In this document: in pieces, positions 54,474-56,198 of the stretch | Position numbering within the stretch: position 1 is the stretch's first letter | Layout: the number at the start of each line of letters is the position of its first letter | Assembly: GCA_951406725.2 (NCBI GenBank) | Contig: OX597817.1 | Span: 4,836,001-4,900,000, forward strand | Direction: 5' to 3' | Length of the DNA stretch: 64,000 nucleotides | Source: Octopus vulgaris | Lineage: Eukaryota | Notes under the pieces: model-generated | What the model was told of the DNA's origin: nothing | Seen by the model: only the letters and a program-made list of their open reading frames with translations | Databases searched by the model: none | Position numbers and translations under genes: made by a program

Positions 54474-54508
54474 GTTTCTGAAGAAGAGCTTTGTTCGAAA
54501 CGTAAGAC
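54474..54508 (+). ncRNA. Minimal type I hammerhead motif (in repeat ~54400-54612)
   Basis: GUUU-CUGAAGA-A-GAGC UUU GUUC-GAA-ACGU-A-AGAC: full core, extra A before stem II, palindromic ACGU stem III, GUA triplet. Confidence 0.7.
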
Positions 54509-55378
54509 CATGTTTCTTTCCTTCCCTGAGTGTCTGCTATTACTTTACATGTACCACGTCCTTGCGTTGTATTTTTTTGTTTGTTCTTCGTTTTATTTTT
54601 ATTTTATTTACTATATATATATATAACATTTTAGGTACAATGTTATACATATAAGATTCCAATACCGTATGAGTAAAATCCAATAGTATTTAAAATTGGT
54701 CATTCCAAGTATAGAGTTTATACACAGTGTTATTGAATCAAGGGTTTTATTAAAGTGACCTAAAAATAGGGAGTATATTAGTAAGGTCAAATTGAAAACA
54801 GGAAAAGAGGTACAAAGAAAGAGAAAAAGAAGAGAAAAAAGAGAAAAAAGAGAGAAGGAGAAGAAAGAAGAAAATAACAAAAGAAATAAAAATTAAAAAA
54901 CAAGAAGAGAGGAAAAAGGAAAGAAAGAAATAAAAAAAGAGATAAAAAGATAAGGATAAGGGAAAGTGTATCAGTTAGTGGTCAGTGGAGATAATTTGAA
55001 AGTACGAGTGGGGAGATAAATGGTGATAGAGAGAGAGAAAGGTATTAGAATGTAAAAAGATAGAAGGAATGAGGGTGATAAAAGGTAAAGGAGTGACAAA
55101 TGTGTTGTGATAGTGTCTAAGTGATGGGGCAGCGGGAAAGTTAGCAGTAAGGAATTAAGGATTTAGGAATTTAGATGGTTTGGCAGGTCAGTGCTTAGTA
55201 ATATATGAAAATATATGTGATGATGTAAACATATGTATATATTAGACATGTATATATGAATATATATTATAGTTAATCCAAACAAGAAAACACAAAAAAA
55301 AACAAAAAAAAACACAACTCGAGGACGTGGAACAAATACAGTATTATTGGACGCTCAGGAAAGAAGGGAAGAAGGAGG

Positions 55379-55413: not shown

Positions 55414-55590
55414 ATAGGAGAAGGAAAGATCCCGAGAAGAGGAGACAGAGGAAAAACATCGCCAACGGTACTCACGAGGTCACATATATATATATATATT
55501 AATATATATAAGGGTAGCAAAAATATTCTAGAAAAAATTCTCCGCTACTAGCGGTCTAGTGAGAAAGGAAAGATAGTCAAAGACTATATA

Positions 55591-56030
55591 ATATACATTC
55601 AACAATATAAGGAATGGCCCTGATAGGCCATTCGACTCACTAGAAAGACCAGCCAAACTCAAACCGCTAAATAGTAGAGATTCTGAAATTGAAAGACAAA
55701 TAAAAACATTTACCCTTTTCATCTCTGGACTATGCATAGTTTCGACAAATTTGTAAACAAATTAATTAAATTAAATTAAATTTATTTACAACTGGCGTGT
55801 CTCGTCAGCAGAGAAGCCGAGGACTAGAATATGTCCACGAGGCAACAGCAAGGAAGCCTCAAGCCTATATGCTCGAAATTTTCAAAATCCACCGCCACTA
55901 CGCGGTCTTCAATTGTTTTTATTTCTCTTTCAATTTCAGAATTACAACTATTTAGCGGTTTGAGTTTGGCTGCTCTTTCTAGTGAGTCGAATGGCCTATC
56001 AGGGCCATTCCTTATATTGTTGAATATATA
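55591..56030. mobile_element. Inverted-repeat element (~120-bp arms) enclosing a hammerhead ribozyme
   Basis: 55591-55710 and 55912-56030 are near-identical reverse complements; (TA)n-rich sequence on both sides. Confidence 0.85.
55722..55814 (-). ncRNA. Intact type I hammerhead ribozyme
   Basis: RNA: UCUCUG-CUGACGA-GAC-[AU-rich hairpin]-GUC-GAA-ACUAUGCAUAGU-C^CAGAGA. All core nucleotides present; 6-bp stem I; palindromic stem III; GUC triplet. Confidence 0.88.
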
Positions 56031-56198
56031 TATATATATATTATACAAATATATATATATATACAAATATTTATACGGATGTTTATACATGTCAATATAT
56101 ACACACAACTCCAACTGGTCTGTATAGGCACAAATGCGCACCCACATATGCGTGTATCTGCATGTATTTGTATATATATACATATATATACATATATA

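Follow-up and report, generated by a model that had tools for sequence, protein, structure and literature searches.

Locus and features

There is a two-armed repeat copy between two TA tracts in the window, which is the whole 64-kb stretch of octopus DNA that was analysed. The longer arm lies on the minus strand and carries a type I hammerhead motif; the shorter arm is inverted. Positions within the repeat unit are numbered from the predicted cut of the hammerhead. The features are listed with the evidence for each in brackets.

55498..55910, minus strand: main arm, unit positions 286-470 then 1-230, 415 of 470 nt (unit alignment)
55911..56038, plus strand: inverted second arm, unit positions 17-143, 128 nt (inverted-repeat and unit alignment)
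55585..55597, minus strand: proximal AU-rich end site, apparent unit position 143 (end mapping)
55483..55500, no strand: (TA)n target tract at the distal end (sequence)
56025..56065, no strand: (TA)n target tract at the end of the inverted arm (sequence)
55722..55814, minus strand: type I hammerhead motif (sequence, descriptor against shuffles, covariation, core conservation)
55814-55809 with 55727-55722, minus strand: hammerhead stem I, 6 bp (sequence)
55808-55802, minus strand: hammerhead core CUGACGA (sequence)
55801-55798 with 55747-55744, minus strand: hammerhead stem II, 4 bp (sequence)
55751..55791, minus strand: AU-rich hairpin inserted into loop 2 (folding, subfamily alignment)
55743-55740, minus strand: GAAA of the hammerhead (sequence)
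55740-55729, minus strand: 12-nt palindrome that forms stem III (sequence)
55728, minus strand: C17, with the predicted cut between 55728 and 55727 (sequence)
55794..55818, minus strand: predicted 3-bp pseudoknot, 55818-55816 with 55796-55794 (alignment against shuffles)

The main arm stops at a distal fixed site and the inverted arm at a proximal fixed site. An inverted repeat of 121-128 nt, 94% identical, flanks the hammerhead, and the element continues 87 nt past it, to 55498. The locus had been described from its sequence as a foldback element, a description that was given up because the inverted part varies between copies and is a second arm of the insertion, whose end falls at a fixed site inside the unit. 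The apparent foldback is a back-to-back second arm and likely the footprint of Penelope-type copying. Between the two arms there are 6 differences in 128 positions and one gap, with a target-derived base among the six, so that change after insertion is needed if they shared a template.

The copy possesses one hammerhead and 0.9 of a unit and is therefore unable to release a unit circle alone. Under the two-unit rule given in bioRxiv 10.64898/2026.07.22.740005, it would by itself fail as 'active'. It is likely a truncated two-armed product rather than a source, and likely inert, and its ribozyme could matter only within a read-through transcript. No host gene was established around the site from the listing of open reading frames (ORFs). 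An unrelated repeat adjoins the element both here (window 55270-55370) and at a second locus (L018:1938-2015); this is likely another inserter into TA tracts.

The hammerhead motif

The motif has the CUGANGA, GAAA and UH core and three helices, and is open at stem I. All of the parts that the sequence-only reading named for the minus strand are present, with two adjustments of length. Stem II is there, although it is 4 bp and not the 3 bp GAC/GUC first described. The 12-nt palindrome is likewise present, and it overlaps GAAA by its first base (A15.1) and the cleavage triplet by its last (U16.1), which leaves a monomeric stem III of 4 bp capped by a loop of 4 nt. A strict descriptor (stem I of at least 6 bp, stems II and III of at least 4 bp each), run on both strands of the 64 kb, matched at 55722..55814 and nowhere else in the window, and none of 100 dinucleotide shuffles matched it. 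A looser descriptor was matched by 1 of 100 shuffles.

Two of the checks that had been proposed for the motif did not return it. Rfam gave no hammerhead match to the window hammerhead at the gathering score, nor up to an E-value of 10, likely owing to the insertion of about 50 nt in stem II. A simple core pattern allowing gaps of no more than 30 nt also does not reach the site. The expectation that annotation would overlook the locus thus holds for the hammerhead in Rfam; repeat annotation is unlikely to miss the family itself, since it has more than 1,500 candidate places. The second check was folding of the reverse complement, and here the lowest-energy prediction for the window copy is a rival fold (-21.8 kcal/mol vs -19.7 for the hammerhead, a gap of 2.1). 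The hammerhead helices make up about 0.9% of its predicted ensemble, and the three-way junction is the minimum-energy fold in none of six subfamily examples. Folding models disregard tertiary contacts. The palindromic stem III has a predicted dimer duplex of -15.9 kcal/mol, compared with 0 for the lone hairpin. Judged by its sequence, the window hammerhead is a genuine type I motif for which self-cleavage is predicted.

There are also two short hammerhead motifs of minimal type in the window, at 54478-54504 (plus strand) and 55409-55382 (minus strand), which belong to other repeat families. Both have an extra A before a 4-bp stem II and a 4-nt palindromic stem III. The one at 55409-55382 has a U4C core.

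Conservation of core and stems in other genomic copies had been set as a check, and the copies bore it out. Across 148 segments of family A, the family of the window copy, the 12 core positions deviate in 8 of 843 cases (0.9%) and stems I and III in 27 of 1341 (2.0%), compared with 355 of 4576 (7.8%) for the neighbouring unit positions 286-381. Loci that were fetched without a hammerhead query behave alike (core 4/423, neighbours 138/1772). One stem II pair flips from AU to GC, with 43 AU, 16 GC and 2 mixed among 61 passes. Covariation was explored in 15 hammerheads chosen by hand across the subfamilies. Changes on both sides were found in 5 of 6 pairs of stem I, 4 of 4 of stem II and 1 of 4 of stem III, and 92.6% of 419 cells are paired, as against 26-43% when the strands are slid. 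The number of doubly changed pairs was equalled by 33 of 500 shuffles, so this measure is weak alone. In 5 of the 15 rows stem II is not closed by a base pair; three of these have the A-A of family B. All aligned subfamilies possess the AU-rich hairpin in loop 2, with differing sequence and with 91% of cells paired over 10 pairs. From this pattern, core and stems are under selection in the copied lineages.

A further pairing is predicted between the nucleotides that adjoin stem I on its outer side and the 5' part of loop 2. At least three Watson-Crick pairs are present there in 13 of the 15 aligned hammerheads (shuffled mean 5.7, maximum 12, in 1000 shuffles), a comparison that gives no probability because the aligned rows are related. 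The pairing is 3-5 bp long, and after re-registration by eye its sequence differs in family B; in the unadjusted alignment of the 15 hammerheads, no change on both sides was seen. This is likely a pseudoknot of the kind described in PMC3088659 and is treated as a predicted tertiary contact.

The repeat unit and its subfamilies

Four DNA searches of the 2.8-Gb genome gave 918, 1752, 1583 and 1739 candidate places, of which the best 40 were scored in each. The best 40 scored relatives of the window copy are mostly 88-97% identical to it, and its main arm is 95.4% identical to the family A majority. The element had been called young, and these values make it only moderately so. In partial tandems of family A, hammerheads are spaced 470 and 469 nt apart. 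The unit closes on itself in tandem arrays, where position 470 is followed directly by position 1 and the two ends are linked by positions 231-285.

No ORF lies within the unit or continues from it, and no LTR structure was found. The ORF for reverse transcriptase (RT) plus GIY-YIG of an autonomous Penelope-like element (PLE) is absent from the unit. None of the frames of at least 220 aa listed among 220 loci runs on from a unit, and the PLE-like frames at those loci lie beyond the TA tract or apart from it. At the level of sequence, the unit is a metazoan non-LTR retrozyme.

Sister subfamilies have units of 473-494 nt that are 65-75% identical to family A. A diverged copy (L037:395-526) led to one of these, family B (L121-L190), with a 473-nt unit that is 67-70% identical to that of family A and arrays of up to 6.9 units. 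Since 40 of 41 family B matches are 100% identical over 151 nt, family B is by this measure far younger than family A. It closes stem II with an A-A mismatch. A pattern for stem III and the downstream sequence, with 8 of the 12 stem III letters fixed and 4 free, had 2454 exact matches, compared with none for a control pattern, and it uncovered further subfamilies of 474-494 nt. The stem III variants listed are all self-complementary, some by way of G-U pairs. Subfamilies E, F and G (L193, L208, L211-L214) have a U4C core in tandem copies; U4C cuts activity in vitro yet permits viroid infectivity (PMC3088659). A DNA search with a stretch of subfamily E returned only retrozyme-type and TA matches. 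Remoter relatives of the unit at L317:926-1400 and L336:1225-2094 (profile E-values of 1e-8 to 1e-12) suggest that there are older subfamilies.

Fixed ends, target and paired arms

The ends of the copies can indicate how they were inserted. At 46 distinct loci, 56 of 75 segments end at unit positions 138-150 or 222-240, and TA-rich DNA adjoins 52 of these 56 ends. The 5' ends of the segments are scattered. In copies that end at the proximal site, about the last 11 nt are often derived from the target: a G at this site reads as A in 29 of 45 terminal passes and in 1 of 85 internal passes. The proximal ends of family B are likewise target-derived.

The two sites are used in pairs. There are 50 back-to-back pairs in family A, with both outer ends at fixed sites in 32 and at least one end elsewhere in 18. 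Thirty of the 32 classifiable pairs have one end of each kind, one has both proximal and one both distal. In family B (20 pairs, copied by hand), 17 of 18 classifiable pairs follow the same one-each rule. The marks of Penelope-type insertion are thus present, namely two fixed 3' ends (the tail), an inverted 5'-truncated arm and an AT-rich target. This copy structure and these ends bear out the earlier assignment of the hammerhead to a non-autonomous, non-coding retroelement tied to PLEs and retrozymes. In the literature covered, which comprised main texts rather than supplements and few subscription papers, no account was found of this family in cephalopods, of the one-each rule, or of Penelope twin priming.

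At several family A junctions (L040, L059, L087, L100 and L106) the start positions of the two arms sum to about 32-36. This sum matches a hairpin formed by unit positions 1-33, as if the arms joined, or snapped back, through it.

Candidate drivers

A PLE-like fragment beside one family B insertion led to an intact PLE-like family of 899 aa. Its period is 3624 nt; it carries a long-stem-II hammerhead of its own and has TA targets. Measured from the cut of that hammerhead, its ends lie 57-70 and 220-227 nt downstream, and 21 of 22 classifiable pairs among 43 loci, judged by eye, have one end of each kind. A young tandem of this element (L253/L254, G000:C1:119513000-119531000) has ends about 160 nt apart, one per arm. 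Other PLE-like families (L297-L316) have intact ORFs of 981, 1090, 842, 896 and 806 aa and are candidate drivers too; most possess long-stem-II hammerheads, with 8-nt stem III segments.

These proteins are presumably those of PLEs, an assignment made partly through RT and GIY-YIG motifs; Pfam and PDB sequence searches of them gave nothing useful. A DKT motif is present in the PLE-like families, and RWK as well in the 981-aa family. With the TA targets, these motifs would fit the Hydra clade described in PMC8557442.

Sequence similarity between the unit and these elements was also explored. Nucleotide local scores between the 899-aa family and the unit are within the shuffle range. A five-unit profile, applied at PLE protein matches (53 and 21 stretches), found no pLTR match; its matches there are retrozyme copies or are not joined to the ORF. 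One match near an old PLE (L269/L317) is separated from it by a CA tract and looks like a further diverged two-armed retrozyme insertion. As no PLE terminal repeat homologous to the unit was found, the driver is proposed from the shared footprint only.

Proposed mechanism and alternatives

It is quite probable that a non-LTR retrozyme unit was copied into (TA)n by a Penelope-like enzyme from two fixed sites, and that the window copy is a truncated two-armed product. The unit length, copy structure, fixed ends, target, paired end use and ribozyme conservation, on which this rests, are observed. Tandem copies of the unit would be transcribed, and the hammerhead could cut the multimer to unit-length RNA, acting either as a monomer or, by way of the palindromic stem III, as a dimer. 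Part of this RNA may then be ligated into a circle. A dimer of a Penelope-like RT/endonuclease would nick both strands of a (TA)n tract, and the DNA ends would be extended on the same RNA, one from about 131-143 and the other from about 226-230. Copying would run around the circle, giving arrays such as those of up to 6.9 units in family B, or would end close to the cut 5' end, and the two cDNAs would be joined back-to-back. Of these steps, cleavage, the circle and the identity of the driving element are those that we infer. Such a pair of starts has a precedent in an anole PLE, where two internal RT starts were found in vitro and both strands are extended by a predicted dimer (PMC11167929).

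The nature of the template can be considered from single insertions. Insertions of family B nearly always contain one haplotype across units and arms. In two of them, a variant that is private (1 of 35 insertions) is present in all 4 passes, with both arms among them, and in a third a private variant is present in 4 of 5 passes. Single-haplotype insertions fit repeated copying of one circle, and also read-through of a homogeneous array. Where copying stopped was examined in 55 distinct arms, for which the queries used in sampling lay downstream of the cut. The 5' stops fall at unit positions 1-40 in 20 of 48 arms at risk, compared with 27 of 121 when the upstream windows are pooled (p=0.014); the next window by itself has 6 of 28 (p=0.085). 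This excess hints at cut linear templates in vivo. The hairpin at 1-33 could be an alternative cause of these stops, by stalling of the RT, or of the joining of arms. None of the runs listed is recorded as RNA; contigs of four runs guessed to be RNA cover the unit, and such contigs are uninformative on strand, ends, level and circles.

The alternative that survives best, although it is unlikely, keeps the same element and a Penelope-type driver but takes as template a transcript that reads through a genomic tandem array and stays uncut, with no circle intermediate. Conservation of the hammerhead would then reflect a role in RNA turnover or promoter release, or passenger status. Insertion in vitro was normal for hammerhead mutants of the anole PLE, no RNA-seq ends were seen at the cut and uncut RNA was the main substrate (PMC11167929), so a tandem read-through template would also fit the arrays. 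In addition, 28 of the 48 arms at risk pass the cut site, and homogeneous arrays could yield homogeneous daughters. However, a variant that is private and yet fixed in every unit of one insertion requires that a template of a single unit was used at some stage, 5' stops are in excess directly downstream of the cut, and core and stems are under selection in the copied lineages. Abundant circles are also reported for the retrozymes of mussel, coral and axolotl (PMC7229834).

It is far less likely that the unit is the pLTR of an autonomous PLE lying outside the matches, the copies being its 5'-truncated insertions. The ends, target and inverted arms are as in autonomous PLEs, and the scoring covered the best 40 candidates of each DNA search. 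Of the 57 retrozyme families in Xenopus, 24 had matches to 22 known repeats, of which 21 are PLEs, at terminal repeats (bioRxiv 10.64898/2026.07.22.740005). Nevertheless, the unit closes on itself in tandem arrays, and the long frames at the 220 loci do not continue from it. A MITE or foldback DNA element with 121-nt terminal inverted repeats and a hammerhead by chance, which the 94% inverted repeat around the motif and the position within TA repeats would favor, is refuted by copy structure: no fixed terminal inverted repeats bound all copies, 87 nt of element lie beyond one arm, many copies have no inverted arm, arms differ in length and content between copies, and tandem multimers exist.

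Within the reading preferred here, copying of a retrozyme by a Penelope-type enzyme, a more specific form can be put forward tentatively and with more doubt than confidence. The Penelope-type dimer may have copied a single ribozyme-made circle from two sites at once, one per DNA end, while the hammerhead is active through a short pseudoknot into a hugely extended stem II. Retrozyme and driver would then have this design in common without homology.

The retrozyme class, the two-start mechanism and the dimeric palindrome are already in print. Mobilisation of retrozymes has been proposed in the literature and not demonstrated, and this family is a clean test system for it, with a very young sister subfamily, intact candidate driver ORFs, mapped starts and the one-each rule, which predicts the products of an in vitro reaction. 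In addition, its long-stem-II hammerhead is of a form that escapes Rfam, and the sister subfamilies offer natural core variants.

Comparison with known systems

The closest known elements are the metazoan non-LTR retrozymes, whose circular RNA is abundant (Cervera and de la Pena 2020, PMC7229834). As described there, these are also non-coding, low-GC units of a few hundred nucleotides with one type I hammerhead each, present as monomers to multimers and co-occurring with PLEs. The mussel retrozyme hammerhead, like this one, is without the usual loop-loop nucleotides (PMC7229834). The units here are 470-494 nt long, compared with 350-390 nt in mussel and the 150-450 nt quoted for metazoans (PMC7229834), and the survey of Li, Clavereau and Pollet (2026) includes units of 51-972 nt (bioRxiv 10.64898/2026.07.22.740005). 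Only one of nine predicted retrozyme dimers of Xenopus cleaved in vitro (bioRxiv 10.64898/2026.07.22.740005), which, like the normal insertion of the anole hammerhead mutants, counts against cleavage being required. The octopus family differs by the stem II insertion of about 50 nt and by having no sequence link found from the unit to a PLE terminal repeat. Further differences are its insertion into (TA)n, its two fixed ends and its back-to-back arms; neither 'inverted' nor 'microsatellite' is used in the main text of PMC7229834.

Endonuclease-bearing PLEs (PMC8557442, PMC3846280, PMC11167929) are reported to share partial tandems, an inverted 5'-truncated arm, a tail at one end, two internal RT starts and an AT-rich target. 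Those of the Hydra clade also insert into (TA)n and have canonical hammerheads (PMC8557442). In contrast to these elements, the unit is without an ORF, and its tail is about 87 nt rather than 30-40 nt (PMC8557442, PMC3846280). The start sites here are AU-rich and resemble the target, whereas the anole starts are not homologous to the cut DNA (PMC11167929).

The hammerhead itself can be compared with two described kinds. It shares type I topology and a palindromic helix III with the minimal, dimeric hammerheads of PLEs (Cervera and de la Pena 2014, PMC4209133). In those, helix III is 0-2 bp, whereas here it is 4 bp, with a stem I of 6 bp, and family A is without the extra base between A9 and G10.1 (PMC4209133). 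In pseudoknot-stabilised hammerheads, a pairing between the stem I and stem II regions replaces the loop-loop contacts, as it may here; such a pseudoknot was predicted for about 40% of the examples in Perreault et al. (2011, PMC3088659). The octopus pairing differs from those described in PMC3088659 in that its predicted 3-5 bp reach into an internal loop of an extended stem II.
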